The notes: generated by a model not told the origin, from the sequence alone. DNA of 64,000 bases from a virus (IMGVR_UViG_3300016476_001289), one strand, 5' to 3'. Positions 18,484-63,588 are shown, counted from the stretch's first letter. Numbers and translations are program-made.

Positions 18484-18973
18484 AGGTGTTAATCCTTTGT
18501 GTAGTGTTTTGATTCTCTATGCTTAACCTATGTTTTGAATGGTTTTTTTCAACGATTTTAAAAAGTTTAGATATTTTGATAACTTAGAAGTGCGCCCTGC
18601 GGCGCATAATATGTAGAAATCTAGGCTCGGATATTATGTAGAAATCTACTTATATATATATACATATATAGGGGGTCCGCATCTCACCCATTAGTGTATT
18701 CTTAATAGGTAAATATAGACAAATATAAGCAATTTTAATTTTAGAAAGAGGGTAGATGCGGACCCATCACCAGACCCCTATATAGCCCTAGATTTCTACA
18801 TTTTATCTGAGAGTAGATTTCTACATTTTATCGGGTGGGGCGAAAAAATCAAATATTTGAAATATCTAAGCTTTTTTTTTGCGTTGAAAAAACAAGCTTA
18901 AAACATAGGAAAAGCATGAGAATGAAAAATGAAAATTCTCTTAACATAGCAATTTAAATGAAAGGATTATGCT
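18484..18973. promoter_or_regulatory. divergent M1/M2/IHF-box element
   Basis: M1 at 18611 and 18636; M2 at about 18673 and inverted at about 18755; inverted M1 at 18789 and 18814; AAAACATA boxes at 18529 (-) and 18900 (+). Confidence 0.85.
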
Positions 18974-19192
18974 ATGAAATTCAATTTAGAAAAACACATG
19001 AATGAATATGTCGCAAATGATCAAGCTTTTAGAGATAGTGAAAATCTCAAAAGAGCAGGATTTAAGCAAATCAACGCACATCAATTCATCAACGCCCATC
19101 GTTTAATCACAATCAAAGCAAGTATGTATTTACTCAAAGATTTGAAAAACGACTTCACCTTAACCTTAACCTCAATAGAAGGGATCAAATAA
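18974..19192 (+). CDS. hypothetical early-type protein
   Basis: First ORF after the right arm, SD aaagga. Confidence 0.6.
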   Translation: MKFNLEKHMNEYVANDQAFRDSENLKRAGFKQINAHQFINAHRLITIKASMYLLKDLKNDFTLTLTSIEGIK

Positions 19193-19273
19193 TGCTATTT
19201 ACTTCAATACTAGTAATTATTTTCTTTGCTTTCATCATTTAACCTAACCTACTTCCCATAAGGATAAAAACCT

Positions 19274-19657
19274 ATGAAAAACATTTTCAATGCTATTAAG
19301 CACAATTTTTGGTGTGGTGAGATTTACTCCCACGATTTAAACGACAAAGGTAGTCGTGTTGTCTTTTCAAAGTATCAAGATGGTAGAAAAGATGACACTG
19401 ACCATATTGTTATGTGTCTTTATGATGCGGATGTCCTACATGAGATAGCAATTAGCTATGAATCACTCTTAACAAAGAAAAAGAATCGTATAGAAATTAG
19501 TATGTTTGGACATTCAAATATATGTGTAGAAAATAATGGTAATTACACATATTACACTGATGTGAATGAATGTGCAAAAGCAGTGTGCCATCAAATTACA
19601 ACCTTTTTAGTAGATGAATTTCACAACCACCACAACATAAAAGTTGAAAGGATTTAA
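19274..19657 (+). CDS. hypothetical protein
   Basis: SD aagga plus acctATG start context. Confidence 0.6.
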   Translation: MKNIFNAIKHNFWCGEIYSHDLNDKGSRVVFSKYQDGRKDDTDHIVMCLYDADVLHEIAISYESLLTKKKNRIEISMFGHSNICVENNGNYTYYTDVNECAKAVCHQITTFLVDEFHNHHNIKVERI

Positions 19658-19662
19658 AACCT

Positions 19663-19920
19663 ATGAATCAAGTAAATAATTTCGTAAAACAAATTGATGA
19701 GAAAGTATTTAATAAATACAAAGATAATGATGCTGTAAATGTTCATCAACATGATGTTAAATACAATCAAGAAAATGACACCTACACTCTTATATTGTAT
19801 GTGTGGAAAGCTTTAAGAGATGAAGAATTTATTTCTATCGATTTAGGTAAACTTGTCAATGGCAAAATGACTAGAACTTTAGATCAAGTTTTTCAAGATA
19901 TTAAAAAGGCTGTAAAATAA
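19663..19920 (+). CDS. hypothetical protein
   Basis: SD aaagga plus acctATG. Confidence 0.6.
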   Translation: MNQVNNFVKQIDEKVFNKYKDNDAVNVHQHDVKYNQENDTYTLILYVWKALRDEEFISIDLGKLVNGKMTRTLDQVFQDIKKAVK

Positions 19921-20474
19921 TGAATGAAGTGAATGATGTAAAGAAAGAGATTTACTCTCTACTTGATACCTGCACAAATCACATTATTGCTTTTGAAGTA
20001 AGAGATGATTTGAGATATTTATCTCAATATGTTGCGAACCCATCTCTAGATTTTCTCAAAGGTCTAGCAAATAAACTTAAACAACACCAACCTAAAGGAT
20101 TAACACCTATGAATATGGATAACCTAAAAACATTAATTGATAATAATGTTGAATGGCGTTTAGTCGATTCTCATTACACTGATAAGCTTATGTATTTAAT
20201 TCTCTGTGTAAATGTTGAAGGTGAAGACATTGAAGTTAGTTTTACTTTAAAAGTAAAAGACAATGGCATTCAAACTGATGTTGAAATAACAAGATGTGAT
20301 GATGTGATTATTGTTGAAGGCAATGATGTGTTCTCTAAGAACGATGAAGAATTAGAAAATAGCATATATGATTGGCTTAAAACCCAAGTGCAATATGGAA
20401 TTGATGAAGTGATAAGCTATAATGCTTTAGGTGATGAAGAAGAGGATGAGGAAGAAGAAGAGATTGAAGAATAA
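19920..20474 (+). CDS. acidic protein; C-terminal part (from internal ATG 20109) paralogous to 21095..21412
   Basis: VEGNDVFSKNDEELE...WLKTQVQYG shared with 21095. Confidence 0.6.
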   Translation: MNEVNDVKKEIYSLLDTCTNHIIAFEVRDDLRYLSQYVANPSLDFLKGLANKLKQHQPKGLTPMNMDNLKTLIDNNVEWRLVDSHYTDKLMYLILCVNVEGEDIEVSFTLKVKDNGIQTDVEITRCDDVIIVEGNDVFSKNDEELENSIYDWLKTQVQYGIDEVISYNALGDEEEDEEEEEIEE

Positions 20475-20504
20475 TCCACCACTAAAAACTAAAACCACCA
20501 CTAA

Positions 20505-20590
20505 AAACAAAGGATTAACACCTATGAAAAACACTAACAAAGGATTTTCACCTATGAAAGACACTAACAAAGGATTAACACCTATGAAAA
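20505..20590 (+). repeat. 3 x 30-bp tandem repeat of an SD+ATG unit
   Basis: aacaaaggatt(aa/tt)cacctATGaaa with ATGs at 20524, 20554 and 20584. Confidence 0.85.
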
Positions 20591-21066
20591 AATTCACAAC
20601 ACTCAACCACAATATTGAGTTAGAGGTCTCTTATGAATCTCACAAACAACTTACCTTCAAAAAACTTACAAAGTTCTTTAAGGAAATTCAGTTTAACAAC
20701 AAAGTAGTCGTAGATAGTGAAACCACTCTTTTTCACCATTCTATGCCAATCGCTGAAGATGTTTATATCAATGTTCAACTTGATGAAGATTATATCGATT
20801 ATGAAGATCGTGAAAGTGAAAAGAATAAAAATCTTTATGTCATCTATGTTGGCTTCGATAAAATGGAAGTAGGTCCTGCCTTCATCATTCCTAAAGATGA
20901 TGAAAAAGAAGAATTGAAAAGACCCTTAACACTCTTAATTGAATCTCAAGACCCATCTCTTCAAAAGTATGATGATAAATATTCTATCATCACAGACACA
21001 AAAGACTTTTTAGATTTGATCTTAAGTCTAGTAAGAAAACAAATCAAATTGAGCATTAACAAATAA
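20524..21066 (+). CDS. hypothetical protein
   Basis: Real start at one of the three SD+ATG repeats rather than at 20431. Confidence 0.6.
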   Translation: MKNTNKGFSPMKDTNKGLTPMKKFTTLNHNIELEVSYESHKQLTFKKLTKFFKEIQFNNKVVVDSETTLFHHSMPIAEDVYINVQLDEDYIDYEDRESEKNKNLYVIYVGFDKMEVGPAFIIPKDDEKEELKRPLTLLIESQDPSLQKYDDKYSIITDTKDFLDLILSLVRKQIKLSINK

Positions 21067-21094
21067 CAATAAACTAAACAAGGATTAAACACCT

Positions 21095-21412
21095 ATGAAT
21101 TTCAATACACTTAAAAATCTTATTAGTTCTCACACTGAATGGGAATTAGAATCTATTACTAGTAATCAAGATAGTATCCTATTTGGATTAACTCTTCCTA
21201 ATGGTCTTGAAGTATTAGCTGACTTTTCAGTTAGATCTAATGGCATTATCTCAAATATTGAGGTGAGAAAATGGGATGCGGACACTCAAGAAGAAGAGAT
21301 TCTAGTTGAAGGTAATGATGCATTCTCTAAGAATGATGATGATTTAGAAATGACTTTATTCACATGGCTTAAAAAACAAGTCCAATATGGCTTAGAAGAA
21401 ATTCAAGGATAA
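21095..21412 (+). CDS. acidic hypothetical protein, paralog of 20109..20474
   Basis: Shared C-terminal motif, SD aagga. Confidence 0.65.
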   Translation: MNFNTLKNLISSHTEWELESITSNQDSILFGLTLPNGLEVLADFSVRSNGIISNIEVRKWDADTQEEEILVEGNDAFSKNDDDLEMTLFTWLKKQVQYGLEEIQG

Positions 21413-21416
21413 GAAA

Positions 21417-22154
21417 ATGAGTCTTAAAAACGCAATTAATAAATATGGCAAAAAATTTGTTAAGAGATATACCGACCTTCCTAATTTGGAAGATCCTGTT
21501 GACAACCTAGTAGATTCAGTTGAACTTAGTGAATTTATATCTAATTGGAATGAGGAACAAAAAGATAATAAAGACCTTGTAAGAATCATCTTTCTTAACA
21601 CCTATCAAGGTTGGCAATTAAAATATGTCAGTGATAGATTAAAGAATGATAAAGATGTTGTTATTGAAGCTATCCAATCTGATGTAGCTGCGATCCCTCA
21701 TATAGGTGATTCACTAAATGATGATGATGAAGTGATTCAATTAATCACTGATCCTAATCTTTATCTTCATCAAGTATCTGGATTTATTTCTAATCCCGAA
21801 GGCTTTGGTGATCCTTATGAAATGGCAATAAAATATGCACCTAAGGAATTACTAGCATCAAAAGAATTTAGAGACCTAGTTTTTAGATTTGCTAATGGGT
21901 ATAGTAAATTTGTAGGTGAAGATAATGATATGGCTATGAATGAACCTATAAATGAAAGAATATTATCTGAGATTTTTGCTTTCTTTGATCAAGGTGAAGA
22001 TGTTCTACAATATAAACAACTGATTGTTAAAAATATGGAACAACAAGATAAGATGTTTTGTGTGTTTAAGAAAGACACAGAAGGTAATCGATATGGTCAA
22101 TTTTTAGATGGTTCAAAAATTCAATTACACACTATGAGTAAAGAAGGGATTTAG
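21417..22154 (+). CDS. DUF4116-containing protein
   Basis: LKYVSDRLKNDKDVVIEAIQ motif. Confidence 0.6.
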   Translation: MSLKNAINKYGKKFVKRYTDLPNLEDPVDNLVDSVELSEFISNWNEEQKDNKDLVRIIFLNTYQGWQLKYVSDRLKNDKDVVIEAIQSDVAAIPHIGDSLNDDDEVIQLITDPNLYLHQVSGFISNPEGFGDPYEMAIKYAPKELLASKEFRDLVFRFANGYSKFVGEDNDMAMNEPINERILSEIFAFFDQGEDVLQYKQLIVKNMEQQDKMFCVFKKDTEGNRYGQFLDGSKIQLHTMSKEGI

Positions 22155-22238
22155 TTCTTCTTTATTTATAGTGTGTTGTTTTTTTGTTTAGGGGTGTAGA
22201 AATCTAGGTATCATTATAAAATAGGGGGTAGTAGGAAA

Positions 22239-22805
22239 ATGTATAAACAATCTAGATTAGATTTACTTAAAACTTTATATAACTTAAAAAAGCCTATACA
22301 AGTTATATCTGATAATTTATTTTATGGTTATACTTATGAACAAGCTATCTTATATATAGGGAAGGACAGGGCTAAAGAGATATATAAAGTTCAACAGAGT
22401 AGAATGAGGGCATATAAGAAAGCTGATTTAAATAGAATAGGATTACACCCTGTAGAGAGTAAGAAATCGGGTGATAAGTTATATCTCTTGGTGAATGACA
22501 TGGGATATTATATATTTGATGTAGATTTAAAAGTTTTAGGGACTGATCCCCATTATGTAAAACCTAGAATAATAGGTGAAGGTGAATGGGATAGGATATG
22601 GGAAGTCATCATAAGGAATGAAGCTAGGGTGAATGAGTTTACTGATATACCTATAAAGGTAAGTTTTACTAATGAATATGGTATATATAAGGAAGGTATA
22701 TTATATGAGTTTATAGAAGTTATGGGCTGTATTGCTTACGGTTCTATTCTATCTGATGAAATAACTTATAATATCCCTATCTTTTTTCTTGACATATCCA
22801 CATAG
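22239..22805 (+). CDS. hypothetical protein
   Basis: 188-aa ORF with SD agga. Confidence 0.5.
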   Translation: MYKQSRLDLLKTLYNLKKPIQVISDNLFYGYTYEQAILYIGKDRAKEIYKVQQSRMRAYKKADLNRIGLHPVESKKSGDKLYLLVNDMGYYIFDVDLKVLGTDPHYVKPRIIGEGEWDRIWEVIIRNEARVNEFTDIPIKVSFTNEYGIYKEGILYEFIEVMGCIAYGSILSDEITYNIPIFFLDIST

Positions 22806-22817
22806 AGTGTTTATAAT
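22789..22817 (+). promoter_or_regulatory. consensus sigma70 promoter
   Basis: TTGACA (22789-22794), 17 nt, TATAAT (22812-22817). Confidence 0.8.
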
Positions 22818-22851
22818 CAATACAAACATACTAACTAGGAGAAAAAAAACG

Positions 22852-32231: not shown

Positions 32232-32360
32232 TTATTCGTCTTCTTCCTCAAGGTAGGATTCAATGATAAATTCTTCAAATTTATCACATGAATCATCAGA
32301 TGATTCTAAACATTCTTCATCGACATATGATAAAATCATAAATTCTTCAAAGTCATTCAT
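32232..32360 (-). CDS. 42-aa very acidic peptide (not in the ORF track)
   Basis: MNDFEEFMILSYVDEECLESSDDSCDKFEEFIIESYLEEEDE; SD aaagga; first ORF after a promoter arm. Confidence 0.6.
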   Translation of the reverse strand: MNDFEEFMILSYVDEECLESSDDSCDKFEEFIIESYLEEEDE

Positions 32361-32696
32361 AGCTTAATCCTTTCATTGATTTATTGTTTTGCTATTTCCT
32401 ATACTCATTATATGTTTTAGGTGGAGTTTTTAAATCAGGTGAAAATGTTTATATATTTCAATAACTTACACGATTCGCCGCGCCACATAATATGTAGAAA
32501 TCTAAGGTGATATAAAAGGCTATTATGTAGAAATCTTGCATAGGGTCCGCATACTTTCACCCCACTTCCACCCCCACCCCTAGATTTCTACATATTAAAA
32601 GGCTAGATTTCTTCACAGGGGGTCCGCATACTTTTAGATTTCTTTCTCCTACCACAAAAAAAAACAACTCGATAAAGAGAAGCTTCTCTTTATCGA
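32361..32696. promoter_or_regulatory. M1/M2 junction: leftward promoter arm plus terminator of the upstream cassette
   Basis: AAAACATA (-) at 32411, IHF-like box at 32456, M1 at 32492 and 32525, M2 at 32543 and 32620, inverted M1 at 32581, hairpin cgataaagagaagcttctctttatcg. Confidence 0.8.
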
Positions 32697-33059
32697 TTAG
32701 GTTCTTTCAATAAATTTAGCAGTGAAAATCTCATTTTCAATTTTAACTTTATAATAATTTGAATATTGAAAATCATGATAATACTTTTTGCCGTCAATTA
32801 CTTCCCAGGTTTTATCGATAAAAAGTATAAATTCAACATTGATTAAATGGGTATTAAGATAAACTTCAGCATTTAAATCATAGTCTTTTATTCTAAAAGT
32901 AATATCTTGACATTTTTCAATCTCTTCATGAAATTTATTTTCTAATGAATGATGAATCTCTTGATAAACACTTTCAATCATAAAATCATCATGATTTTTT
33001 TCAATCATTCTCTTTATAAAGCCTCGCATACCTATTTCGTATCTTAACTCTCTAATCAT
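32697..33059 (-). CDS. hypothetical cassette protein
   Basis: SD aaagga favours ATG 33059 (MIRELR) over the ORF-track start at 33077. Confidence 0.6.
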   Translation of the reverse strand: MIRELRYEIGMRGFIKRMIEKNHDDFMIESVYQEIHHSLENKFHEEIEKCQDITFRIKDYDLNAEVYLNTHLINVEFILFIDKTWEVIDGKKYYHDFQYSNYYKVKIENEIFTAKFIERT

Positions 33060-33077: not shown

Positions 33078-33556
33078 TGATTTATTTGTTAATTGCTATA
33101 CTCATTATATGTTTTAGGTGAGATTTTTAATATAGGTGAAAATGTTTATATATATCAATAACTTACACGATTCCCACATCCTGATAATATGTAGAAATCT
33201 AAAAGGATAAAATGTAGAAATCTAGGTGAAACCCCTATAATGTCCGCATACTTATCACCCCACCCTAGATTTCTACATATAAAGCCATAAGGATATTTTA
33301 TTCACCCAAATACATGGTCCGCATACTTTCACCATACTCGCCCTAGATTTCTACATTTTAGGGTATTTCTAATATTCACCTAGACCCCTTAGATTTCTAC
33401 ATATTATCAGTATATGTAAATCTCGTAAGTGATTAAAATGTATAGCTTTTTTTACCTACATTAAAATTATCACCTAAAACATATATTGAGTATAACTTAA
33501 CAACATAGATGATTGTTAAGTCTTTTAACATAGCTTAACATAAAGGATATAATGCT
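33078..33556. promoter_or_regulatory. divergent M1/M2/IHF-box element
   Basis: Perfect WATCAANNNNTTR at 33153-33165; M1 at 33189 and 33212; M2 at 33242 and 33316; inverted M1 at 33266, 33344 and 33390. Confidence 0.85.
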
Positions 33557-34057
33557 ATGACAAGTTTCAATAAAACTCAATTTCTTTCTCAATTTGCTTC
33601 TTTTACTCCTAAAAATGAATGGGAAGAAAAATTTAGTAAATCTCTTCACCGACAAGTAGAAAAGTATGGTAAAGAGTTATCTGAAAAACAAATTGAATGT
33701 TGGACAAAATTAATTGCTCCTAAGACTCAAGTTAAGGTAGAATCTTTATCTGAAACTGCTTTAAGTGAATTAACAAAAGCAAATAATGTTCTTGTTTATG
33801 CTACTGAAGTTAAAGATATTGAATTTGCTAAAAGCTTAAAATCTCAAATTTTAGAAGGTAAAGAACTTAGCTCAAAACAAGCTTATTTCTTAGGATTAAT
33901 TGAGAAAAGAGTAAGCCCAAAGGTTGAAGCTCCTAAGGTTGAAACTGCTAAAGCTCCTAAGACTGCTAAAGCTAAGGTTGAAGCTCCTAAGGTTGAAGCT
34001 CCTAAGACTGCTAAAACTGCTAAAGCTAAAAAAGAAGTAAAAACATTACCATTCTAA
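33557..34057 (+). CDS. cassette protein with two LS.KQ motifs and a Lys/Ala/Pro-rich tail; paralog of 61939..62394
   Basis: Near-identical N-terminal about 125 aa; APKVE/TAK repeats. Confidence 0.75.
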   Translation: MTSFNKTQFLSQFASFTPKNEWEEKFSKSLHRQVEKYGKELSEKQIECWTKLIAPKTQVKVESLSETALSELTKANNVLVYATEVKDIEFAKSLKSQILEGKELSSKQAYFLGLIEKRVSPKVEAPKVETAKAPKTAKAKVEAPKVEAPKTAKTAKAKKEVKTLPF

Positions 34058-34799: not shown

Positions 34800-34935
34800 A
34801 TAAACTCCTTATAGGTGAATAAAGATAAACCATATTATATTATTCACTTATAAGGCAGTATCTTCACCTTAAGATTATCACCTATAAGATTCACCTATAG
34901 GATTAGTCTATAATAATATAATATTATAGTCAGTA

Positions 34936-35036
34936 CATAATACTATTATAGACTATATAATATACTAAGAAGAATATAATACTATTATAGACTATAATAT
35001 ACTTAAAAGACATAATACTATTATAGTCTATAATAC
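34936..35036 (+). repeat. three imperfect AT-rich direct repeats
   Basis: ataatactattatag(a/t)cta at about 34937, 34976 and 35012. Confidence 0.7.
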
Positions 35037-35117
35037 ACCTAAGAGAAACATAATATCTTATATACTGTTAGTCCTATATTTCCTATAATATAGTCCTATA
35101 AGGAGAAAGGACTCATT

Positions 35118-36248
35118 ATGTTAGATAAAGAAAAATTAGAAGAACTATTTAATCAATTCACCATTAAAGATATTAGTGGAATACTTAATACTAGTCCAGC
35201 TAATGTTAGAAAACATATTAAAATCTATGATCTAAAAAAACCTATCAGAGATAAAAACAAAAAAGCAATAGATCCTAATCTTATTCATTCTCTCTTTAAT
35301 GAAGGTAAATCTATAGTCCTTATAGCTAAAGAACTTAATGCTAGTTATGACTGTATAGCTAACTTCCTTAAACCATCTAAAATTAAAAACTCTAAATACT
35401 CCACCTTAAAAGTTTTATATGCCACCCAAAAGAAGTCTATTCCTGAAATTTCTAAAATTCTAAATATATCACCCACCACCATCTGGAGATGGATAAAGAG
35501 ATATAATTTACAAAGACACTCACCTATAACTAAACCCACCCTACAAGACCTGTATCTAAATAAAAAACTACCTATTTACCAAATAGCTAAAAAACTTAAT
35601 ATCCCTATTGATGATGTCTCCATAGCTATTAAAAACTATGACCTGAAAAACACCCACCCTCAAATCTCTAAAGAACAAATATTAAACTTTTACCCCGCCT
35701 TGTCTCTTAAAGAAACTTCTTCTATTTTAAATATCCCTATAACACACTTTATGAAACTCTTATCCTCCTATAATATACCTATAAGAAAAAAAGGTAAAAC
35801 ACCTATAACCATATCCCAAGAGGTCTTATCTGATTTATACATCACCCAAAATAAATCAATAGATGCCATCTCTACTATACTTAAAGTAAGCGATAAAGTT
35901 ATTAGACAGAGAATTAAACTCTATGGTCTTATTAAACACTCTAAAGCAACTAAAAATAAAGTCTTATCTATCTCTAAAAGAGAACTTGAAAACCTTTACT
36001 CTTTTGAAGGTATCAAAGCTGTCTGTTCTAAATTTAATGTCACTCTTAAAGCTGTTAAAGATGCCCTAGATAAATATGGTATTCTCCACAATAGTAATAA
36101 ACTCCCTAAAGAAAGAATTATAGACCTATATGTAAATACCTATGCTGTATATAAAGCACATATAGCTATTGATGAAATAGCTAAAGAACTTAATCTATCA
36201 AGAAGAGAAATTACAGAGTTTATAAGATATAATAAAATTAAAAGATAG
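35118..36248 (+). CDS. tandem multi-HTH DNA-binding protein
   Basis: About 8 HTH-like repeats (e.g. SIPEISKILNISPTTIWRWIKRYNL). Confidence 0.7.
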   Translation: MLDKEKLEELFNQFTIKDISGILNTSPANVRKHIKIYDLKKPIRDKNKKAIDPNLIHSLFNEGKSIVLIAKELNASYDCIANFLKPSKIKNSKYSTLKVLYATQKKSIPEISKILNISPTTIWRWIKRYNLQRHSPITKPTLQDLYLNKKLPIYQIAKKLNIPIDDVSIAIKNYDLKNTHPQISKEQILNFYPALSLKETSSILNIPITHFMKLLSSYNIPIRKKGKTPITISQEVLSDLYITQNKSIDAISTILKVSDKVIRQRIKLYGLIKHSKATKNKVLSISKRELENLYSFEGIKAVCSKFNVTLKAVKDALDKYGILHNSNKLPKERIIDLYVNTYAVYKAHIAIDEIAKELNLSRREITEFIRYNKIKR

Positions 36249-46938: not shown

Positions 46939-47399
46939 ATATACTCCTGTATAGAGTTAAGGGTTTAACAAAAAAGAGATTTTTCATTCTCATGCTTAAC
47001 CTATGTTTTGAGTCAATTTTTTCAACGATTTTAAAATGTTTAGATATTTCAAACACTTACGAATTTCGCCTGCGGCGGATAATATGTAGAAATCTAGCCT
47101 AAGATAAAATGTAGAAATCTACCTATATATAGGTCTAAAAAGGGGGGTCCGCATCTACCCTAATACTGAATATATACTTAGTTATATATTAGTCTATTAT
47201 ATATAGAATTAGGGTGTATGCGGACCCTATATAATCAATATAACAATACTAGATTTCTACATAATATCTGAGCCTAGATTTCTACATTTTATGCGCCGCA
47301 GAGCGCACTGCTAAGTTATCAAAATTTCTTAACTTTTTTAAATCGTTGAAAAAAAAGACTCAAAATATAGCGTGTATATAAGCTCAAAAAGAAAGGTTT
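46939..47399. promoter_or_regulatory. divergent M1/M2/IHF-box element (closest relative of the 18.5-kb element)
   Basis: M1 at 47084 and 47109; M2 at about 47145 and inverted at 47216; inverted M1 at 47250 and 47275; right arm is a close reverse complement of 18525-18648. Confidence 0.85.
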
Positions 47400-55472: not shown

Positions 55473-55520
55473 ATCTCCTTAAGTCTATCATACCATAATA
55501 ACAGATAAACCCTAGTGTCA

Positions 55521-55592
55521 ATATTTCTACATTTTAAGGGCTAGATTTCTTGCTCCCTGCACAAAAAAAACCCAACCTAGCAAAAAGCTAGG
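55521..55592 (-). terminator. cassette end: terminator and M1 variants
   Basis: cctagcaaaaagctagg hairpin, A8, ctagatttcttgc, atttctaca. Confidence 0.7.
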
Positions 55593-55892
55593 TTATTTAT
55601 CATCAGCAAAGTTATGTGTAGTAGATATTTGTAAATATCTAGGATGATAGAACCAAGCTAAATCTCTATTCATAGGATTATCATAAATCTGAAAGAAATA
55701 ATGAAATTTCTCACCTTGATATTCAATCTCAAAGCTACCTTTATTAAGGTTGAAATTTTGACATGATAGCTTGTATCCAATCAAAAGAGTGGTTCTGTCT
55801 TGTGGTAATTCTAAAAGGATAATATCCTTTTTTAATTTTGCTTTTTGGGTTTTATTCATTGAGGGGCAGTTGATTTTAATACTCATAGTCAT
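55593..55892 (-). CDS. hypothetical cassette protein
   Basis: SD aaagga; single gene between a promoter arm and a terminator. Confidence 0.6.
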   Translation of the reverse strand: MTMSIKINCPSMNKTQKAKLKKDIILLELPQDRTTLLIGYKLSCQNFNLNKGSFEIEYQGEKFHYFFQIYDNPMNRDLAWFYHPRYLQISTTHNFADDK

Positions 55893-56372
55893 AGCTTTTT
55901 CCTTTCATTTATTGTTAATTGCTATACTTAATATATGTTTTAGATATTGATTTTAGTATAGGTGAAAAAGCTTAGGTATTTCAATCACTTATGAGATTAA
56001 AAAACTAGGATAAAATGTAGAAATCTAAGCACTATTAGGCTAATATGTAGAAATCTAGGTGAAAGGGTAAAAAGGGTCCGCATACAAAATTTTAGGTTTG
56101 TTTTGGCAATTTTGGCTTCACCTAGATTTCTACATATAACCTTATCCTGAGTTGCTAGGAAAAAGGTCAAAAATAGGTAAAAAGGGTCCGCATACTTTTT
56201 TTGGCTTCACCTAGATTTCTACATATTATCCACACCCTAGATTTCTACATTTTATCCTAATGGGTGAATTCCCTAAGTATCTAAAACCCTTAAATTTTCT
56301 TATTTTAGTGAAAAAAACCCTTAAAAACATAGAATAAGTATAGCAAATAACAATAAATGAAAGGATTTAGCT
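55893..56372. promoter_or_regulatory. divergent M1/M2/IHF-box element
   Basis: M1 at 56015 and 56045; M2 at 56074 and 56184; inverted M1 at 56123, 56212 and 56238. Confidence 0.85.
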
Positions 56373-56621
56373 ATGAATTTTCAAGACTTGATTAAAGAAC
56401 TTGCGTTATTAGGATATTTTGAACTTGATTTATCTCTTAAAGATAATATGATTCACTTCAATAATAATGATGAATTATTTATCAATGATGAATTATCTCT
56501 ATATGAAGTTAATCATGAAGGTAGAAGATTTGAATTATGTATAGTCGAATCTGTGGATGATGTGATTTTCTATATTGAAGAAAATCAATTTACCCCTGAT
56601 TCTTCCGACTGCCCAAATTAA
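56373..56621 (+). CDS. acidic cassette protein, paralog of 63589..63831
   Basis: MNF..L.KEL.LLG.FE...LC..ESVDDV..Y.E. Confidence 0.7.
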   Translation: MNFQDLIKELALLGYFELDLSLKDNMIHFNNNDELFINDELSLYEVNHEGRRFELCIVESVDDVIFYIEENQFTPDSSDCPN

Positions 56622-56881
56622 ATCCTAGCTTTTTGCTAGGTTGGGTTTTTTTTTGTGATTGAAGCAAGAAATCTAGTCTTTATTTTGTAGAAATCTAGGT
56701 GAAGTGGGTGATGTTAAGAAAAAGTATGCGGACCCCTATGGTATTCCACCCTAGATTTCTACAAAATATCCAAATCCCCAAATCCCATAAGTGATTGAAA
56801 TATCTAAGCTTTTTCACCTATGTTAAAACCATCACTTAAAACATATATTAAGTATAGCAATAACAAAACAAAGGATAAAAA
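56622..56881. promoter_or_regulatory. terminator, M1/M2 junction and rightward promoter arm
   Basis: cctagctttttgctagg plus T-run; M1 at 56686; inverted M2 at 56724; inverted M1 at 56751; IHF-like box at 56788; AAAACATA at 56838. Confidence 0.85.
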
Positions 56882-57424
56882 ATGATTGACTTCACTAAAT
56901 ACAATTTTTCAAAATTCTATGATCTTGTAGTAGGAAAAAATAAAGCTAAGAGGGTAGAAAAGAAAAAGAAATTCATTGAGACTTATGGTGGTAATGAAGA
57001 AGTTATACGAACCCTTATTCAAAAAGTAGGTATCTATGAAGTATACAAGTATATTGCGCCTCATAATCCTATATTCAAAGATTATGAGCTTGTGAAAAAG
57101 TGTTTAAAGAAAGAGGTACTCTTTTTCAAGAAAATTCCAGTGAAATATAGAACTGAAGAACTTGTGTTGATATTCATGAAGTATGAGATGAAATATGACA
57201 TGAATTACAAGGGAATTGAAAAATCAATCAATAGTAAATTTCAATATCTCCTTGAGTCTAAATGGTGGAAAAAATATGTTGAAGAAAATATCAAGCTTCA
57301 ACAAAAAGAAAAAGATATGAAAATTTGGTGGCGAGAGAATAGTAAAAAGTATTCATCGGAAGATAGTGCAATTACAGCACTTGAAAGAAAATTTGGGAAG
57401 ATGAAAGACTACTTTGAGATTTAG
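56882..57424 (+). CDS. basic hypothetical cassette protein
   Basis: 180 aa, SD aaagga. Confidence 0.6.
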   Translation: MIDFTKYNFSKFYDLVVGKNKAKRVEKKKKFIETYGGNEEVIRTLIQKVGIYEVYKYIAPHNPIFKDYELVKKCLKKEVLFFKKIPVKYRTEELVLIFMKYEMKYDMNYKGIEKSINSKFQYLLESKWWKKYVEENIKLQQKEKDMKIWWRENSKKYSSEDSAITALERKFGKMKDYFEI

Positions 57425-57431
57425 GTTGGGC

Positions 57432-57535
57432 GTTGCCTTTACGGCAACAAAGATTTTTTTTGTGTAGGAAGCAAGAAGTCTATGGGTGGGCTAGGCAAGT
57501 AGAAATCTAGCCCTTATTTTGTAGAAATCTAGGGT
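57432..57535 (+). terminator. cassette end: terminator and M1 pair
   Basis: gttgcctttacggcaac hairpin, T-run, gtagaaatctag at 57499 and 57521. Confidence 0.7.
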
Positions 57536-57765
57536 GAATATCCTATATAGACATTATTTGTATTTAACCAAGTTGGTTTAGGTAGTGTTCTAGCTGTGTA
57601 TAAAGCAACTGATTGTCTTATGTTAAGAGGACTGATATAGAAACCTAATCCTTTAATTTCTTTTTTAGGGTGGGCAGGTGAAAAAGTAGATGAGAATAAA
57701 CCTATATTTTGAACTGAGTGAAAAATATTATTCCCATGACAATAAAAGAAAGGTGGGTTATTCAT
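57529..57765 (-). CDS. family B small protein
   Basis: RQSVALYTARTLPKPTWLNTNNVYIG. Confidence 0.7.
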   Translation of the reverse strand: MNNPPFFYCHGNNIFHSVQNIGLFSSTFSPAHPKKEIKGLGFYISPLNIRQSVALYTARTLPKPTWLNTNNVYIGYSP

Positions 57766-57766
57766 A

Positions 57767-57997
57767 TTATCTTCCTATATAGACATTATCTGTGTTTTGC
57801 CAATTTGATTTAACTAAAGACCTTACACTATATAAGGCTATTGATCTTCTCATAGCTATGTTATCCATAGGTATATAATACCCCATACCTTTTATTTCAC
57901 CTCTACTTAAATGACCTGCTGAGGTAGATGAGAAGAAATTGGTGAACTGTATAGCTTGAAAGATATTATTAGCATTACAATTAAAAAAGAAGATCAT
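57767..57997 (-). CDS. family B small protein
   Basis: RRSIALYSVRSLVKSNWQNTDNVYIG. Confidence 0.7.
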   Translation of the reverse strand: MIFFFNCNANNIFQAIQFTNFFSSTSAGHLSRGEIKGMGYYIPMDNIAMRRSIALYSVRSLVKSNWQNTDNVYIGR

Positions 57998-58248
57998 TTA
58001 TCTTCTCTTCCTATATAGACATCATTAGAATTTTGCCAATTAGCTTTAGGTAAAGACCTGATACAAAACATAGCAACTGACCTTCTAAGGTTTTCTATAT
58101 TGTTCTCATATATAAGGACACCTTTACCTTTTATTCTATTATCTTTATGTTGCATGGTATGGGTAGAGAAGATACTTGTATATTGTTTAGCATGAAATAT
58201 ATCATTATTCTCATAATAGACAGAGAAGATAGCTTTATCATAGAACAT
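57994..58248 (-). CDS. family B small protein
   Basis: RRSVAMFCIRSLPKANWQNSNDVYIG. Confidence 0.7.
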   Translation of the reverse strand: MFYDKAIFSVYYENNDIFHAKQYTSIFSTHTMQHKDNRIKGKGVLIYENNIENLRRSVAMFCIRSLPKANWQNSNDVYIGREDK

Positions 58249-58253
58249 AGGTT

Positions 58254-58499
58254 TTATTCTCTTCCTATATAGACATCATTAGAGTTTATCCAATTAGCTT
58301 TAGGTAAAGACCTAACACTAAATAAAACTATTGACCGTCTTATATTTTCTAAAGGTTCTTTATACATAAAGATGCCACCTAAATAAGTTTGATATTTAGG
58401 TTTAGAAGTATAATTTAAAGATAAAAAGCAAGTTTCTTGTTGTGCTTTAAAGATATTATTATTAGAACAGAAAAAGAAAGCTATCGGTTGAATATCCAT
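58254..58499 (-). CDS. family B small protein
   Basis: RRSIVLFSVRSLPKANWINSNDVYIG. Confidence 0.7.
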   Translation of the reverse strand: MDIQPIAFFFCSNNNIFKAQQETCFLSLNYTSKPKYQTYLGGIFMYKEPLENIRRSIVLFSVRSLPKANWINSNDVYIGRE

Positions 58500-58501
58500 A
58501 G

Positions 58502-58741
58502 TTAATTCTCTCTTCCTAAGAAGACATTATTAGTATTCATCCAAGTATGAATAGGTAAAGACCTGATACTATAAACCACTATACTCTTTCTTAAAATATC
58601 TTGATCCACAAAAATAGCACTACTTTTTGATCTATTATTTGTTCTTAAAGAGTATTCAGAAGATAAAACACAAGTTTTTACTTTCCCATGAAAAAGATCA
58701 TTAGAATCACAAAGTAAAAAAAAGAAGGTGTAGTTATTCAT
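58502..58741 (-). CDS. family B small protein
   Basis: RKSIVVYSIRSLPIHTWMNTNNVFLG. Confidence 0.7.
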   Translation of the reverse strand: MNNYTFFFLLCDSNDLFHGKVKTCVLSSEYSLRTNNRSKSSAIFVDQDILRKSIVVYSIRSLPIHTWMNTNNVFLGREN

Positions 58742-58744
58742 TTT

Positions 58745-58951
58745 CTATTCCTTATAAAAGACATCACAATTATTTACCCATGTGTGTTTAGGTAATGACC
58801 TAACACTAAATAATACTATACTCCGTCTCATAGATTCTTTACTTAAGGGTATCCCATGATTTATGGAACTATTACTTGATAGAAAACAACTATGTCTTAT
58901 AAAGACACTATGGTAGATGTCATTCCCTATAAAGAAAAAGTATCCTATCAT
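58745..58951 (-). CDS. family B small protein
   Basis: RRSIVLFSVRSLPKHTWVNNCDVF. Confidence 0.7.
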   Translation of the reverse strand: MIGYFFFIGNDIYHSVFIRHSCFLSSNSSINHGIPLSKESMRRSIVLFSVRSLPKHTWVNNCDVFYKE

Positions 58952-60480
58952 TCTTTTAAAAACCCATGTTCATAAACACCAGGTCTTAACTTATCTCCTA
59001 GTGCCTTATGTAAATCCTTTAACACCTTAAAGTCGTCCTTATACTCAATTTCCCAAAACCCCTTTAACTGATACCACCCACAATCCCAACAAGTTAATTG
59101 TAATTCAGGATTTGCCAAAGCATAGGCTTCTCTTGTATCTAAGGACTTAACCCATAAGTTAGTAGCATGGACTAATAAATCCTCAGCTTCTTTACTAAGT
59201 GTAAGTTCCCCAATTAAGGTCGCCACATAAGACTCTTCATAATGTTTTTCAAAATCTTCATACAATAAAGGACACTTCTCTTTTAATAAGCCTTTAATGC
59301 CATATCTCTCTAACCAAAAGAAATGATTTTTAATTTGCCAAATTTCGCCACCCCAAGAGACATCTCTCATACTTGTACAATTATTCTTTGTCTCAAAGAT
59401 ACTATATATATGACAATCATCTACCCACTGTTCATAACCTTCTTTTAATTCAGAAGGTTGTATATAAGTCCCATTCTCATCTAACCACTTTTGTGTAAAA
59501 GGAATTATAGGGTGATCTATATATGGGATTTCTTTAGGTGGGGCTTTCTTAATAGGTCCTGTCTTTTCTCTTTCTTTAATCTTTAAGCCACTTGTCATAA
59601 TAGGGTATTCATAAACCTCCATGCCTTCAATAGGTTCTCTCACCCATTCACTAGCTGACTTATGGTTATCGCAGTTATAAATTTGTTTCCACCCTACATG
59701 ACTAGCATCTAGTTCTCTAATAGAGAGAATAGGTTCTTCAGTATTTTCACCTTCAGACCATATAGTAAAGCCTACACCCCATTCAGAAGAAACACCTGAG
59801 AAAGCACTAGCATTAAAGAAGAATCCTTGTTGGAATTTAAAATCTCTATAATACCATTTACGGAATTTTTGAGCTGTCTCTTGGATCATGAATTTAATAG
59901 GTGAGAATAGACAGATAGAAACTTTAGTATAACCGAAGTTCCTAGCTTGTCTTACGGCTTCAAAGATAAATTGAAAGTATAAATTAGAGCGACAAGCACC
60001 TACCATAGACATAAGGTTCTTCACCTTAGTCTCAGACACACCTTCTTTATTTTCTTCATCGTCAGCTAAAGTACCTGCTGCGGCATAAGGAGGGTTCATA
60101 AAGAATACAAGTCTCTTATCTGTATTCTTAGATAAGAGATTAAAGGCATATTCCGATAAAGGATTCTCATAAGAGAATAGGTCTAGGTCAGGGTTAAGGA
60201 AGTCATATTTAAAAGCATTGGTATAACCTTGTTTAACGAGTAGGTCTACTTCAGGTTGTTCGAGTGTAGAGATAATGAGATTTTTAAAATCATATTCTCT
60301 TGTTAAGTTACCTGACCCTGCACAACAATCCCATACGACACATTCATCTTTCCAGTTTTCACCTAAGACTTTGGTGGTGAGTTTATGTGCTTCATCTACC
60401 CATAATTTAGGGGTGAAGAAAGCACCTTGTCTAGTTCTAATTTCATTTACTATGGTTTGATCATAATTTTCAATCTTCAT
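58948..60480 (-). CDS. N6-adenine DNA methyltransferase (gamma-class motif order)
   Basis: GAFFTP (X), VWDCCAGSGNL (I), FMNPPY (IV). Confidence 0.8.
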   Translation of the reverse strand: MKIENYDQTIVNEIRTRQGAFFTPKLWVDEAHKLTTKVLGENWKDECVVWDCCAGSGNLTREYDFKNLIISTLEQPEVDLLVKQGYTNAFKYDFLNPDLDLFSYENPLSEYAFNLLSKNTDKRLVFFMNPPYAAAGTLADDEENKEGVSETKVKNLMSMVGACRSNLYFQFIFEAVRQARNFGYTKVSICLFSPIKFMIQETAQKFRKWYYRDFKFQQGFFFNASAFSGVSSEWGVGFTIWSEGENTEEPILSIRELDASHVGWKQIYNCDNHKSASEWVREPIEGMEVYEYPIMTSGLKIKEREKTGPIKKAPPKEIPYIDHPIIPFTQKWLDENGTYIQPSELKEGYEQWVDDCHIYSIFETKNNCTSMRDVSWGGEIWQIKNHFFWLERYGIKGLLKEKCPLLYEDFEKHYEESYVATLIGELTLSKEAEDLLVHATNLWVKSLDTREAYALANPELQLTCWDCGWYQLKGFWEIEYKDDFKVLKDLHKALGDKLRPGVYEHGFLKE

Positions 60481-60735
60481 AAAGTTCCTTTTCTCTTATA
60501 TAGAAGAATATCTATAATGTTCTTCTATTATATTATACATAATACTTATATATCTTTATAATTACTTAGTACTGAGTATTAGAATATAGTCTTATAAGTA
60601 GATTCCACCTATATCTATTCTCACCTATATATTATTCACCTATATATCTTATATAAAATATTTTTAGAAACCCTATATGTGTTGGATAATATAAAATATC
60701 ATTTATGACCTTTATAACTTTTGGAGTAAAAGATA

Positions 60736-60936
60736 ATGTACGATTCTTTATCTGAGAATAGATTATATTTCCATGATCTCACCGAAGATACTTATGTTCA
60801 AGTATCAAGAGATTTTTTTGATGTTGTCCGTCTTCACTATATACAAAAAGAAGATATTGTTAAAACCCAAACATATAAGTATGAAGAGTTCTCTGAAGAT
60901 GTATTCAATAAATTTATCTCAGAGATTTGTAGCTAA
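60736..60936 (+). CDS. hypothetical protein
   Basis: 66 aa, SD ggag. Confidence 0.45.
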   Translation: MYDSLSENRLYFHDLTEDTYVQVSRDFFDVVRLHYIQKEDIVKTQTYKYEEFSEDVFNKFISEICS

Positions 60937-61353
60937 ACATATTTGTATATCTATATCATCTAACTTATCTAAGTGTTTTATCATTAAACTTTTTACATCT
61001 TCCCAATTTAAACCACCACGACCACACCCTAATTTAGGAAATGCTATTGAGTCTATTCCTAATCCCTTATAGGTCTTTACAAAATGTTCTAATCCCTTAT
61101 CTATATAAGATAAACTAGATCCTGATTTCCAATGTCTCTTAGTAGGGAAGTTATATACTTCACCATATAGATAAGGTTCACCTATTTTAAACTCTTCTCT
61201 CATACACCTATGATAATAATCTTTATACATATCAGGGTATCTAGTTTTAAATTCTAAGGCTATACCTATTCCCATTACACCTACAATATTAACAGCATTA
61301 ACTAAAACTTTAGCATCTGTTTCAAATACATTTTTATCAGTAAAGAAAAGCAT
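60919..61353 (-). CDS. DarG/Poa1p-like macrodomain protein
   Basis: LVNAVNIVGVMGIGIALEFK, NFPTKRHWK, SIAFPKLGCGRGGLNW. Confidence 0.85.
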   Translation of the reverse strand: MLFFTDKNVFETDAKVLVNAVNIVGVMGIGIALEFKTRYPDMYKDYYHRCMREEFKIGEPYLYGEVYNFPTKRHWKSGSSLSYIDKGLEHFVKTYKGLGIDSIAFPKLGCGRGGLNWEDVKSLMIKHLDKLDDIDIQICLATNL

Positions 61354-61408
61354 AGATTTCTACTTTCGAGAATAAAAAAAACATCACATCAGCTACAAGA
61401 GATTTATC

Positions 61409-61738
61409 TTATAGGATAAATCCCTTGCAACCGATGATATTACCACTAGCATCTCTTAAAGTATCAGGAGCAAGTAAATCTTTACGACCTACTTTCTTAC
61501 CTGCTTCAAGGACGATTAAGCTAACAATATAAAACACATTATCTTGGGGCGCAGGTAAATCAACTATCTCACCTAAGATACTCATTTTTAATGGTATTAA
61601 GATACCATCTAAATCAAGAGTAGGTAAATCGAGATTTGTTTGATTCACACGAGGCAAGATACCACTCTTTTCAAAAGTAGTGGTAGTTCCATTATAGATC
61701 AGGTGAACATCATGGGGTGTTGCATTAATGATTTGCAT
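61409..61738 (-). CDS. N-x-T-P-H family protein (possible ring-nuclease-like)
   Basis: IINATPH...LPAP...YIVS...DLLAPD..RD..G.IIGC; SD aaagga before ATG 61738. Confidence 0.55.
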   Translation of the reverse strand: MQIINATPHDVHLIYNGTTTTFEKSGILPRVNQTNLDLPTLDLDGILIPLKMSILGEIVDLPAPQDNVFYIVSLIVLEAGKKVGRKDLLAPDTLRDASGNIIGCKGFIL

Positions 61739-61751
61739 TTTAAGTCCTTTC

Positions 61752-61946
61752 TTATTTGTTGTTTTTGTTTTTGAGTGAAGCAATTACTTTGTCATCATAA
61801 GCATTAGCAAAGCTATGAATAGATTTAGCTTTAATGCCATAATCTAAAAGATCAAAATCTTTGAAAGATAAAGATCTTTTTGTATTAGTGGTTTTAGGTG
61901 TTCTAAAAATTTTTCCTTTTGGGAAGGTGTTGTAAGTCTTAGACAT
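61752..61946 (-). CDS. small hypothetical protein
   Basis: 64 aa, SD aaagga. Confidence 0.5.
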   Translation of the reverse strand: MSKTYNTFPKGKIFRTPKTTNTKRSLSFKDFDLLDYGIKAKSIHSFANAYDDKVIASLKNKNNK

Positions 61947-62394
61947 TTTTTTCCTTTGTGGTTTTGGTTTTAGGTGTCTTAGGTGCTTTAGCAGTCTTGG
62001 GTGCTTCTTCTACTTTGGGTGCTTCAACTTTAGGTGATACTCTTTTCTCAATCAATCCTAAGAAATAAGCTTGTTTTGAGCTAAGTTCTTTACCTTCTAA
62101 AATTTGAGATTTGAGTGATTTAGCAAATTCAATATCTTTGACTTCAGTAGCATACACTAAAACATTATTAGCCTTAGTTAATAATCCTAATGAATCATCA
62201 CTTAAAGTCTCTACCTTGACTTGAGTCTTAGGTGATACAAGCTTATTCCAGCATTGTAATTGCTTTTCGGATAGCTCTTTACCTTGCTTTTCTACTTGTT
62301 TATGTAGACTCTTGCTAAATTTCTCTTCCCATTCATTAGATGGTTTAAAAGAAGAGAATTGATTGAGAAATTGTGTTTTATTGAAACTTGTCAT
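61939..62394 (-). CDS. paralog of 33557..34057
   Basis: MTSFNKTQFL...identical stretch NNVLVYATEVKDIEFAKSLKSQILEGKELSSKQAYFLGLIEKRVSPKVEAPKVE. Confidence 0.75.
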   Translation of the reverse strand: MTSFNKTQFLNQFSSFKPSNEWEEKFSKSLHKQVEKQGKELSEKQLQCWNKLVSPKTQVKVETLSDDSLGLLTKANNVLVYATEVKDIEFAKSLKSQILEGKELSSKQAYFLGLIEKRVSPKVEAPKVEEAPKTAKAPKTPKTKTTKEKNV

Positions 62395-62949
62395 AGCGTT
62401 TTATCCTTTATGTTATGCTATGTTAAAAGACTTATCAATCATCTATGTTGATAAGTTTAAGAGTTTATCTTTATCTCTTATACTACTTGTATGTTTTAGG
62501 TGATAATTTTAACACAGGTGAAAAAGCTTATATATATCAATAGGTTGTAGAATATGCTCACTTGGATATTATGTAGAAATCTAGGAATTTTAAAAACTAG
62601 GCTATTATGTAGAAATCTAGGTGAAAATAGATAGGGGGTTCGCATACTTTTTTCACCCACCCTAGATTTCTACATATTAATGTGGCATCACCTTAATATG
62701 GGGTCCGCATACTTTCACCCAAATTCTTTTAGATTTCTACATTTTAGGGTATTATCTCGTCACCCTAGATTTCTACATATTATCAAGATACCTAAATCGC
62801 CTAAGTTATTGATATATATAAGCTTTTTCACTTATGTTAAAAATATTACCTAAAACATATATTGAGTATAAGAGATAAAGATAAGCTCTTATGCTTAACA
62901 ACATTGATGATTGTTAAGCTCAACATAGCAAAACAAAGGATTTAAAGCT
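62395..62949. promoter_or_regulatory. divergent M1/M2/IHF-box element
   Basis: Perfect IHF consensus at 62535-62547 and 62802-62814 (rc); M1 at 62571 and 62607; M2 at about 62637 and 62701; inverted M1 at 62663, 62730 and 62766. Confidence 0.85.
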
Positions 62950-63246
62950 ATGAAATTTAGAAAAGATAATTTTGATAATACCTCTTGCGATTTACCTAGA
63001 ATCGAAACACCTAGCAATGAAACAGAGCAAGTCTTAAAAAGCGTTGATTTTGGTGTTTTTAGAACCGACAAAGAAACTCACTACCTTCATAATGGTTTAG
63101 GTTGTCAAGTGATTCATTGTCGATATGGGTATTTAGTAAGAGATTTTATTCAATATACCGGGCAAGTTAAGCGCCCTGCTCTTCATACTATTGAGAAGCT
63201 TCTTGAGGCACTTGATGATGCTAGAACTTGGAAAAATTGGAAGTAA
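62950..63246 (+). CDS. hypothetical cassette protein
   Basis: 98 aa, SD aaagga. Confidence 0.6.
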   Translation: MKFRKDNFDNTSCDLPRIETPSNETEQVLKSVDFGVFRTDKETHYLHNGLGCQVIHCRYGYLVRDFIQYTGQVKRPALHTIEKLLEALDDARTWKNWK

Positions 63247-63274
63247 TAAGCTTCTTATCGTGGATTGAGTTTTG

Positions 63275-63588
63275 AGATAACTAATTGACTTAATTGTCTT
63301 TTAGTTATCTTGTCTTTTTTTTGTGGTAGGAGAAAGAAATCTAGCCTTTATTTTGTAGAAATCTAGGGTGGGGTGAAAAACCCAAATTTTTGTATGCGGA
63401 CCCCCCCTATGGTATTTCACCCTAGATTTCTACAAAATAAAGGCTAGATTTCTACATAATAGCCCAATACTCAAATCCTGTAAGTAATTGAAATATCTAA
63501 GATTTTTCACCTGATTTAAAAACTTCACCTAAAACATATATTAAGTATAGGAAATAGCAAATAACAAAAATCATGAAAGGATTTAGCT
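63275..63588. promoter_or_regulatory. terminator, perfect 36-bp inverted repeat junction and rightward promoter arm
   Basis: IR at 63335-63370 / 63418-63453; inverted M2 in the spacer; IHF-like box at 63481; AAAACATA at 63531. Confidence 0.85.

Follow-up and report, generated by a model that had tools for sequence, protein, structure and literature searches.

Known composite cassettes and the locus under study

Integration host factor (IHF) assists upstream-activator promoters such as the sigma-54 promoters Pu and nifH and those of Caulobacter flagellar genes, and it stimulates lambda pL and Mu Pe. The late promoters of phage T4 carry TATAAATA, which is read by gp55/gp33/gp45, and need no upstream DNA sites. 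In RNA polymerase I transcription, terminator and promoter-proximal sites are bound by TTF-I or Reb1; mTERF is the mitochondrial case. Here we analyze a 64 kb stretch of phage DNA with ~31% GC (IMGVR_UViG_3300016476_001289; this whole stretch is called the window below), in which 13 modules of ~120 bases lie within 45 kb. Each module, called an arm here, combines a 12-bp repeat (M1, TAGATTTCTACA), usually in two copies, with a 13-bp box related to the IHF consensus and an 8-bp core, AAAACATA. The closest known arrangement is that of the PeSL composite cassettes of T4-like phages, in which a composite terminator/promoter motif flanks small variable open reading frames (ORFs) in plastic regions (PMC2839356, PMC4122927).

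As in the PeSL case, each small, variable ORF forms its own transcription unit, in plastic regions of a large phage, and the combination of a promoter with a stem-loop terminator is found here too: nine of the arms (subtype g2, see below) correspond one-to-one to units made of a hairpin and a run of eight Ts (T8). The PeSL, however, is short and contains a host sigma-70 early promoter, whereas the core described here is non-canonical and has no conserved -35, and the module is ~120 bp long, with rigid internal spacing and an IHF-like site. In addition, M1 and a second repeat, M2 (GTATGCGGACC), bracket both ends here, at a fixed ~86-88 bp from the core and at 12 nt from the terminator T-run.

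The IHF-assisted promoters share with the arms a layout of upstream sites (~-90 to -120), a bend (~-50), and then the core, at strict distances; unlike the sigma-54 members of that group, the arms lack -24/-12 boxes, no enhancer-binding ATPase was identified, the IHF site is a predicted one, and M1 also stands behind terminators. T4 late and other phage-sigma promoters are similar in their 8-bp AT-rich box of the -10 type ending in ATA, in the lack of a conserved -35, and in what would be phage-specific recognition. The sequences differ (AAAACATA versus TATAAATA), and conservation in the arms extends over ~90 bp upstream; in the available DNA no gp55-like gene turned up, although no genome-wide search aimed at one was made. 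The presence of one oriented element past the termination point and before the next promoter recalls TTF-I, Reb1, and mTERF as an analogy of mechanism only, since those systems are eukaryotic or organellar and no homology is implied; here an intrinsic hairpin with a T-run would terminate, with the element 12 nt beyond it in a proposed roadblock role.

Thirteen arms with fixed internal distances

A preliminary description of this DNA had listed 13 promoter arms of invariant geometry, each followed by a ribosome-binding site and an ORF. All 13 were recovered at the listed coordinates (Table 1): AAAACATA is present in 12 of them, and the arm at 47362 carries the variant AAAATATA. The gap from the 13-bp box to the core is 37 bp in 13/13 arms, ten arms have 24 bp between M1 and the box and the other three (cores 18529, 47002, and 47362) have 25 bp, and the arms can be aligned gap-free from the proximal M1 past the core. 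Counted from the first A of the core as 0, the 13-bp box lies at -50 to -38 in every window arm. Every arm is oriented toward its gene, with a Shine-Dalgarno (SD)-like AAGG/AGGA and an ORF of 42-484 amino acids (aa) following at 38-103 nt.

A profile built without M1 and searched with nhmmer returned precisely these 13 arms and nothing else in the 64 kb. The core itself is enriched only inside them: AAAACATA occurs 21 times in the whole window (9.2 expected), 12 times in arms, and the nine copies outside arms are at chance level. For M1 (at most one mismatch), 39 copies compare with an expected 1.5, and for M2, 13 copies with an expected 0.05.

There are two subtypes in the window. The four g1 arms (18529, 18900, 47002, and 47362) head long divergent operons; the nine g2 arms head cassettes of one to a few genes, which end at matched terminators, and some of these cassettes share near-identical arms and leaders. 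The g2 arms have two TCACCT boxes flanking the A-tract. This motif, TCACCT(ATA), stands in all nine g2 arms at -24 to -19 and at -6 to -1, and three copies at 13-15 bp spacing are also found in the M1-free intergenic regions 34864-34905 and 60602-60652; a role as operator for a second regulator is possible. We also observed a short GC-rich hairpin that follows the proximal M1 and precedes box A, at 18624-18640, at 47262-47300, and in many related arms. Its variants show compensatory differences (GCGCC-GCAG-GGCGC, CAGCC-GCAA-GGCTG, GGGG-CGAG-CCCC), and it is missing from most g2 arms.

Related arms and selection on spacing

Metagenome contigs were scanned for M1 pairs, which gave 118 stretches, many of them low-GC, from freshwater, and also containing M2. 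Iterated profile searches then produced 97 matches, corresponding to 78 distinct arms from 52 sources, the window included. In the related arms, 37 bp separate the box from the core in 45 cases and 38 bp in 22; between M1 and the box there are 24 bp (30 cases), 25 bp (39), 26 bp (four), 23 bp (two), or 22 bp (one), so that 69/78 arms have 24 or 25 bp, within a range of 22-26. Of the 78 arms, 73 are followed at 28-151 nt by an SD with an ORF no shorter than 40 aa.

The preliminary description had also noted that the DNA between the boxes diverges although its length is kept, and the larger set bears this out: pairwise identity of the spacers is 0.33-0.38, against 0.31 for random sequence, while their lengths vary by no more than 1-2 bp. 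Other distances are loose by contrast (M1 to M1, 20-50 bp; core to ATG, 28-151 nt). Since spacer length is nearly constant despite nearly random sequence, the spacing itself is under selection, and this in turn points to a fixed protein-DNA architecture. "Invariant" holds for the 37 bp in all 13 window arms but not for the relatives, with their 1-2 bp of variation; the geometry is rigid, not literally invariant. The 12-mer M1 is exact in many contigs whose flanks have diverged.

One of the related loci (L096) is identical to the window over the compared stretches (18814-18907 and 22195-22260), which places the same phage genome, or one nearly identical to it, in a public metagenome collection. 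Searching bacterial genomes for M1 found only unrelated palindromic TGTAGA-N2-TCTACA arrays. This palindrome, which contains the M1 12-mer, forms tandem arrays in unrelated higher-GC genomes and contigs (e.g., L121:4326-4373, L122:5903-5955, L074, L079, and L040), and some family of dimeric DNA-binders may commonly target its TCTACA half-site. IMG/VR yielded two chance M1 matches only and no relative of the 484-aa protein, the window had no DNA or protein match among GenBank phages, no Rfam family was found in it, and a literature search on AAAACATA as a promoter motif returned nothing relevant.

The core and the promoter class

AAAACATA is the 3′-most conserved element of the arm. When relatives were retrieved through boxes A-C only, the exact core was present in 45/61 (74%), and the non-exact cores were mostly one-off variants (AAAACAAAG, GAAAACACAG, AAAACCATA, TAAATATA). 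In the aligned arms, +6 is always T and +7 always A, positions +8 to +11 are nearly information-free, and T occupies the would-be -7 position in only 45% of arms. Five relatives have a different core, of the CTATATAT type, on the same upstream module. The alternate core (TTRACTATATAT type) stands at the same position after box A, T-tract, and A-tract at L022:3824, L054:13196(-), L098:548(-), L108:336(-), and L022:11212(-), which hints at another promoter class that uses the same upstream part; the upstream module is thus a general platform, and it is the core that defines the class.

The earlier statement that the core matches neither sigma-54 nor well-spaced sigma-70 promoters agrees with our results. 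No sigma-54 boxes (TGGCAC-N5-TTGC; GG at -24, GC at -12) are present in the aligned arms or the clade consensus, and there is no conserved -35/-10 pair: sigma-70-like pairs are not enriched (37 versus 42 expected in the scanned part, 55500-64000), and the pairs present in some window arms (TTGAAA-18-TATGTT; A-tract hexamer-16-TAnnnT) have no conserved counterpart among relatives. The proposal of a phage-specific promoter class likewise fits these gene-proximal, oriented modules. We consider it very likely that the arms are promoter modules and, with less assurance, probable from the conservation profile that AAAACATA is a -10-type element without a conserved -35. In one relative the SD is as close as +22, and leader hairpins, individually weak (z-scores -0.5 to -2.9), begin at +15 to +19; the nearby SD and the hairpins together bound the predicted start site to approximately +8 to +16.

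Several other assignments were tried and rejected. TTGAAA of box A could serve as a -35 in the window arms with TTGAAA-18-TATGTT, but relatives have no -10 there, and a downstream TATAG as -10 leaves no space where the SD is as near as +22. An AR9/phiKZ-type AACA-N6-TW promoter does not fit because +12 is not T, and neither the Bacteroidetes TAnnTTTG element nor a T7-like contiguous 20-bp promoter matches the conservation profile. For a hairpin between T-tract and A-tract, both tracts are invariant and therefore give no covariation signal, and longer inverted repeats are found in a few arms only.

M1 behind terminators

M1 is not confined to promoters. Its 9-bp core, AGATTTCT, is also found, inverted, behind the cassette terminators, in a fixed register: of the 66 distinct cases in the clade, 53 have an A-run on the M1 strand that begins exactly 21 nt after M1 does, which corresponds to a hairpin, T8, 12 variable nt, and the M1 core AGATTTCT(A). 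In 40 of 54 such cases the hairpin has a predicted energy of -8 kcal/mol or stronger. Ten such units are present in the window; one, at 22195, is internal to the rightward g1 operon, and each of the other nine closes one of the nine g2 cassettes. M1 copies thus stand at both ends of each cassette, and M1 always points into the adjacent gene, at the 5′ end as well as the 3′ end.

These positions do not agree with M1 as a mere upstream activator, the role it had been given before: the 9-bp core is also fixed 12 nt behind terminator T-runs, and the spacing of the distal M1 is loose (20-50 bp). M1 looks like a polar boundary element, judging from where its copies lie, and it is likely bound by a sequence-specific protein.

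A possible IHF-type site

Four elements make up a canonical IHF site: WATCAA, a TTR that follows after four bases, a pair of AA kinks separated by 9 bp, and, in the other half, a tract of 4-6 A (PMC1874591; bioRxiv 10.1101/382655). The preliminary description had reported matches to the first two, and its counts hold. Against WATCAANNNNTTR (read as the reverse complement), the 13-mer is perfect in three window arms (33153, 62535, and 62802), has one mismatch in six (18850, 32456, 47047, 55979, 56788, and 63481), and is more degenerate in four (two mismatches at 33426; three at 18574, 47312, and 56274). In this AT-rich DNA, matches with at most one mismatch have a background of 0.0014 per position and strand, or about one per 350 bp, which amounts to a chance of roughly one in five within a conserved 90-bp module, so that the 13-mer alone is weak evidence.

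The remaining elements are also present. On the opposite strand, the arm consensus reads A5, G, CTTAGATA, TTTCAA, N4, TTA. The A-tract corresponds to T5 at -28 to -24 (80-86% per position), the kink steps to TT at -43/-42 and AA at -32/-31, 9 bp apart, and all 71 of 71 arms keep the essential center T of TTR (in arm orientation, the A at -49). The C, AA, and TT of the 13-mer are conserved across the clade. The composite IHF pattern occurs 22 times in the window (14.6 in simulated sequence), with nine of the 22 in arms, and the probability of a module showing it by chance is ~0.02, a post-hoc figure. The implied bend center at ~-37 is nearly midway, with 44 bp to the center of the proximal M1 and 40.5 bp to that of the core. 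That box A and the T-tract form a site bent by an IHF/HU-type protein is, on these resemblances, possible, though we place it slightly short of probable.

Proposed architecture of the junctions

In the reading that we prefer, the arms would be the promoter halves of composite terminator/boundary/promoter junctions, which, in this huge phage as in its relatives, would divide the host-takeover region into transcription units insulated from one another. AAAACATA would be read by a polymerase carrying a phage-supplied specificity factor, not by unaided host sigma-70. Box A (TAAGTnnTTGAAAT) and the T-tract would form one ~34-bp site for an IHF/HU-type bender, and a U-turn near -37 would fold the proximal M1 (center ~-81) onto the core (center ~+3.5); a U-turn joining M1 and core would explain why both gaps are fixed. 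A phage protein on M1 would contact the polymerase at the promoter, with a protein made of helix-turn-helix (HTH) arrays as a possible candidate, and the same protein 12 nt beyond a terminator T-run would act as a roadblock or insulator, meeting the polymerase while its active site is on the T-run. The whole chain, a bent, M1-activated AAAACATA promoter plus an M1 boundary at the terminator, is a tentative reading, which we regard as possible rather than probable. The stricter version, in which M1 is a boundary element at both cassette ends and one phage protein both blocks polymerase past the T-run and, through an IHF-type fold, acts on the -35-less AAAACATA promoter, we consider rather unlikely to be correct in full.

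Several observations weigh against this architecture. The loci were retrieved through an M1-pair pattern, and the association of M1 with arms outside the window is therefore biased. The 13-mer was scored as WATCAR-N4-TTR, a consensus for IHF; the resemblance was found post hoc, and four window boxes have two or three mismatches. The clade consensus, (W)TTCAA-N4-TTA, has a mismatch at position 2 in ~70% of arms (TTCAA versus ATCAA), a well-conserved position, and GT at -47/-46 and T at -37 are conserved though IHF ignores those positions. The A-tract lies 9-10 nt from the 13-mer, not 8 nt as at the H′ site, which was used for this comparison. No PF00216 (HU/IHF) match was found among 80 window ORFs, and no HU signature in 818 kb of related loci. 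The alternate cores imply that the upstream module is not tied to AAAACATA. No sigma-like gene was identified in the available DNA, and the start site and the reading factor are inferred.

Alternative explanations

The same promoter class could work without IHF if M1, box A, T-tract, and A-tract were all read by an elongated phage DNA-binding protein, an array of five to eight HTH modules, the fixed spacing then reflecting the pitch of the protein modules. Three multi-HTH array genes are present in the island, two of them inside arm-driven operons, and homologs occur in ~25 related, M1-bearing contigs, which is co-occurrence only and may simply mirror a shared location in the early region. The predicted structure of the 231-aa protein has five separate three-helix modules on what appear to be flexible linkers (mean pLDDT 81, pTM 0.36), and the best PHROG matches of the array proteins, phage regulators and the DNA-binding parts of homing endonucleases, read long targets. 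The conserved positions in box A that IHF ignores, and the lack of an HU/IHF gene in the window or the 818 kb of loci, also agree with such a reader. Yet the HTH modules within one protein resemble each other, which the sequences of the boxes do not, and the mimicry of a full IHF site by box A and T-tract is left unexplained; we consider this explanation somewhat unlikely. It is quite unlikely, in our view, that the arms are ordinary strong early promoters used by unaided host sigma-70. The -35 would be the A-tract hexamer (T/G)TGAAA at -16 to -11, the -10, after a 16-nt spacer, would comprise TA of the core and the next four bases (+6 to +11), and T-tract and box A would form an UP element. 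Some arms fit (GTGAAA-16-TAGAAT at 56308-56335; TTTAAA-16-TATATT at 63515-63542), arms 32411 and 33108 have a perfect TATAAT, T +6 and A +7 are invariant, and the downstream genes look early or host-takeover-like (macro domain, ADP-ribosylglycohydrolase, NUDIX, small ORFans). But the scarce information at +8 to +11, T at -7 in 45% of arms, and the lack of enrichment of sigma-70-like pairs all speak against this layout, the would-be -35 hexamer is poorly conserved across subfamilies, and the invariant AAAAC would fall in the spacer, unexplained.

A different kind of explanation sets promoter mechanics aside: the modules might be conserved mainly as recombination scaffolds for cassette shuffling, similar to PeSL or to terminal inverted repeats, with the spacing inherited and not selected. 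The PeSL precedent itself (PMC2839356, PMC4122927), the bracketing of unrelated small ORFs by the same repeats, and the near-identical arms and leaders of some cassettes are in its favor. Neutral descent, however, does not predict spacers that are substitution-saturated yet almost indel-free, and an exact 12-mer M1 amid diverged flanks argues for protein recognition; as the main cause of conservation, this is improbable, although a recombination role is compatible with a promoter role. The preliminary description had also considered an origin or att arm. Repeated M1, an IHF-like site, and AT-rich tracts would suit replication-origin iterons or att-type recombination arms, but there are 13 copies in 45 kb, each facing an SD and ORF at 38-103 nt, each of the nine g2 arms is paired with a terminator unit at the 3′ end of its cassette, and dozens more arms in relatives each stand before a gene, all of which makes this alternative very unlikely.

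Gene context and candidate binders

The window encodes GroEL/GroES, three paralogs of topoisomerase-IB fold, macro domain, ADP-ribosylglycohydrolase, NUDIX, and DUF4116 proteins, and many small ORFans, a gene set that is typical of an early or host-takeover region. The three multi-HTH paralogs (Table 1) consist solely of tandem HTH modules; whether one of them reads M1 is doubtful, although these proteins are the candidates at hand. Directly upstream of the 376-aa multi-HTH gene, positions 34918-35066 contain 3-4 tandem AT-rich repeats of 36-39 bp (ATAATACTATTATAGACTATAAT-like). A 30-bp unit with SD and ATG (AACAAAGGATTAACACCTATGAAAAACACT) forms 2.9 tandem copies at 20506-20591, and the same SD-start string is the leader of arm 18529.

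Table 1. Elements of the arm (positions relative to the first A of the core, 0) and features of the window (window coordinates).
Feature	Position	Strand	Parts	Context
M1 with extension	starts -86 to -88		TAGATTTCTACATnTTaT	
Box A	-50 to -37		tAAGTnnTTGAwwT	
Box B	T5 at -28 to -24		TArrn then T5	
Box C	-17 to -9		(G/T)(G/T)kAAAAA	
Box D (core)	0 to +7		AAAACATA	
Arm 1 (g1)	18529-18648	-	core 18529-18536, box 18574-18586, M1 18612-18623 and 18637-18648	nhmmer match; leftward operon, first ORF 17761-18483
Arm 2 (g1)	18789-18907	+	M1 18789-18800 and 18814-18825, box 18850-18862, core 18900-18907	rightward operon, ORF 18974-19192 onward as far as topoisomerase-IB paralogs
Arm 3 (g2)	32411-32537	-	core 32411-32418, box 32456-32468, M1 32493-32504 and 32526-32537	small ORF 32232-32360
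Arm 4 (g2)	33108-33224	-	core 33108-33115, perfect box 33153-33165, M1 33190-33201 and 33213-33224	ORF 32697-33059
Arm 5 (g2)	33344-33483	+	M1 33344-33355 and 33390-33401, box 33426-33438, core 33476-33483	leader hairpin, then ORF 33557-34057 (read by eye)
Arm 6 (g1)	47002-47121	-	core 47002-47009, box 47047-47059, M1 47085-47096 and 47110-47121	leftward operon from ORF 45484-46938
Arm 7 (g1)	47250-47369	+	M1 47250-47261 and 47275-47286, box 47312-47324, core variant AAAATATA 47362-47369	rightward operon, 47400 onward, 11-gene paralog array
Arm 8 (g2)	55934-56057	-	core 55934-55941, box 55979-55991, M1 56016-56027 and 56046-56057	ORF 55593-55892
Arm 9 (g2-like, degenerate box)	56212-56331	+	M1 56212-56223 and 56238-56249, box 56274-56286, core 56324-56331	ORF 56373-56621
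Arm 10 (g2, single M1)	56752-56845	+	M1 56752-56763, box 56788-56800, core 56838-56845	ORF 56882-57424
Arm 11 (g2)	62490-62619	-	core 62490-62497, perfect box 62535-62547, M1 62572-62583 and 62608-62619	long leader with two hairpins, then ORF 61939-62394
Arm 12 (g2)	62730-62859	+	M1 62730-62741 and 62766-62777, third copy 62663-62674, perfect box 62802-62814, core 62852-62859	ORF 62950-63246
Arm 13 (g2)	63423-63538	+	M1 63423-63434 and 63445-63456, box 63481-63493, core 63531-63538	ORF 63589-63831
Terminator-side unit (example)	56624-56697	+	hairpin 56624-56645, T-run, 12 nt, inverted 9-bp M1 core from 56667, full inverted M1 56686-56697	
Nine further terminator-side units		(see parts)	M1 core at 22195(-), 31452(+), 32635(+), 34131(-), 55542(+), 57474(-), 61353(+), 63335(-), 63883(-)	
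Multi-HTH gene, 231 aa	40215-40910	-	five tandem three-helix HTH modules	putative candidate reader of M1 or arm boxes
Multi-HTH paralog	13553-14521	-	tandem HTH units, ~48 aa each	
Multi-HTH paralog	35118-36248	+	tandem HTH units, ~48 aa each	

Implications

For the way in which huge phages program their transcription, a bent promoter with a boundary element offers a concrete, testable mechanism. The arms constitute a sequence-defined, clade-wide promoter class that combines four conserved boxes at exact spacings with a matching element on the terminator side, and this class provides a handle for annotating transcription units in huge phages, which are known almost only from metagenomes. If the boundary or roadblock reading is true, the junctions would represent an unusual viral insulation of many small host-takeover genes, and they would also supply compact promoter, insulator, and terminator parts for synthetic biology. 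If a single phage protein does act at both ends, the gene cassettes would be plug-and-play units that carry their own insulation, and they would parallel, in a bacterial virus, the terminator-plus-promoter-proximal layout of TTF-I and Reb1.

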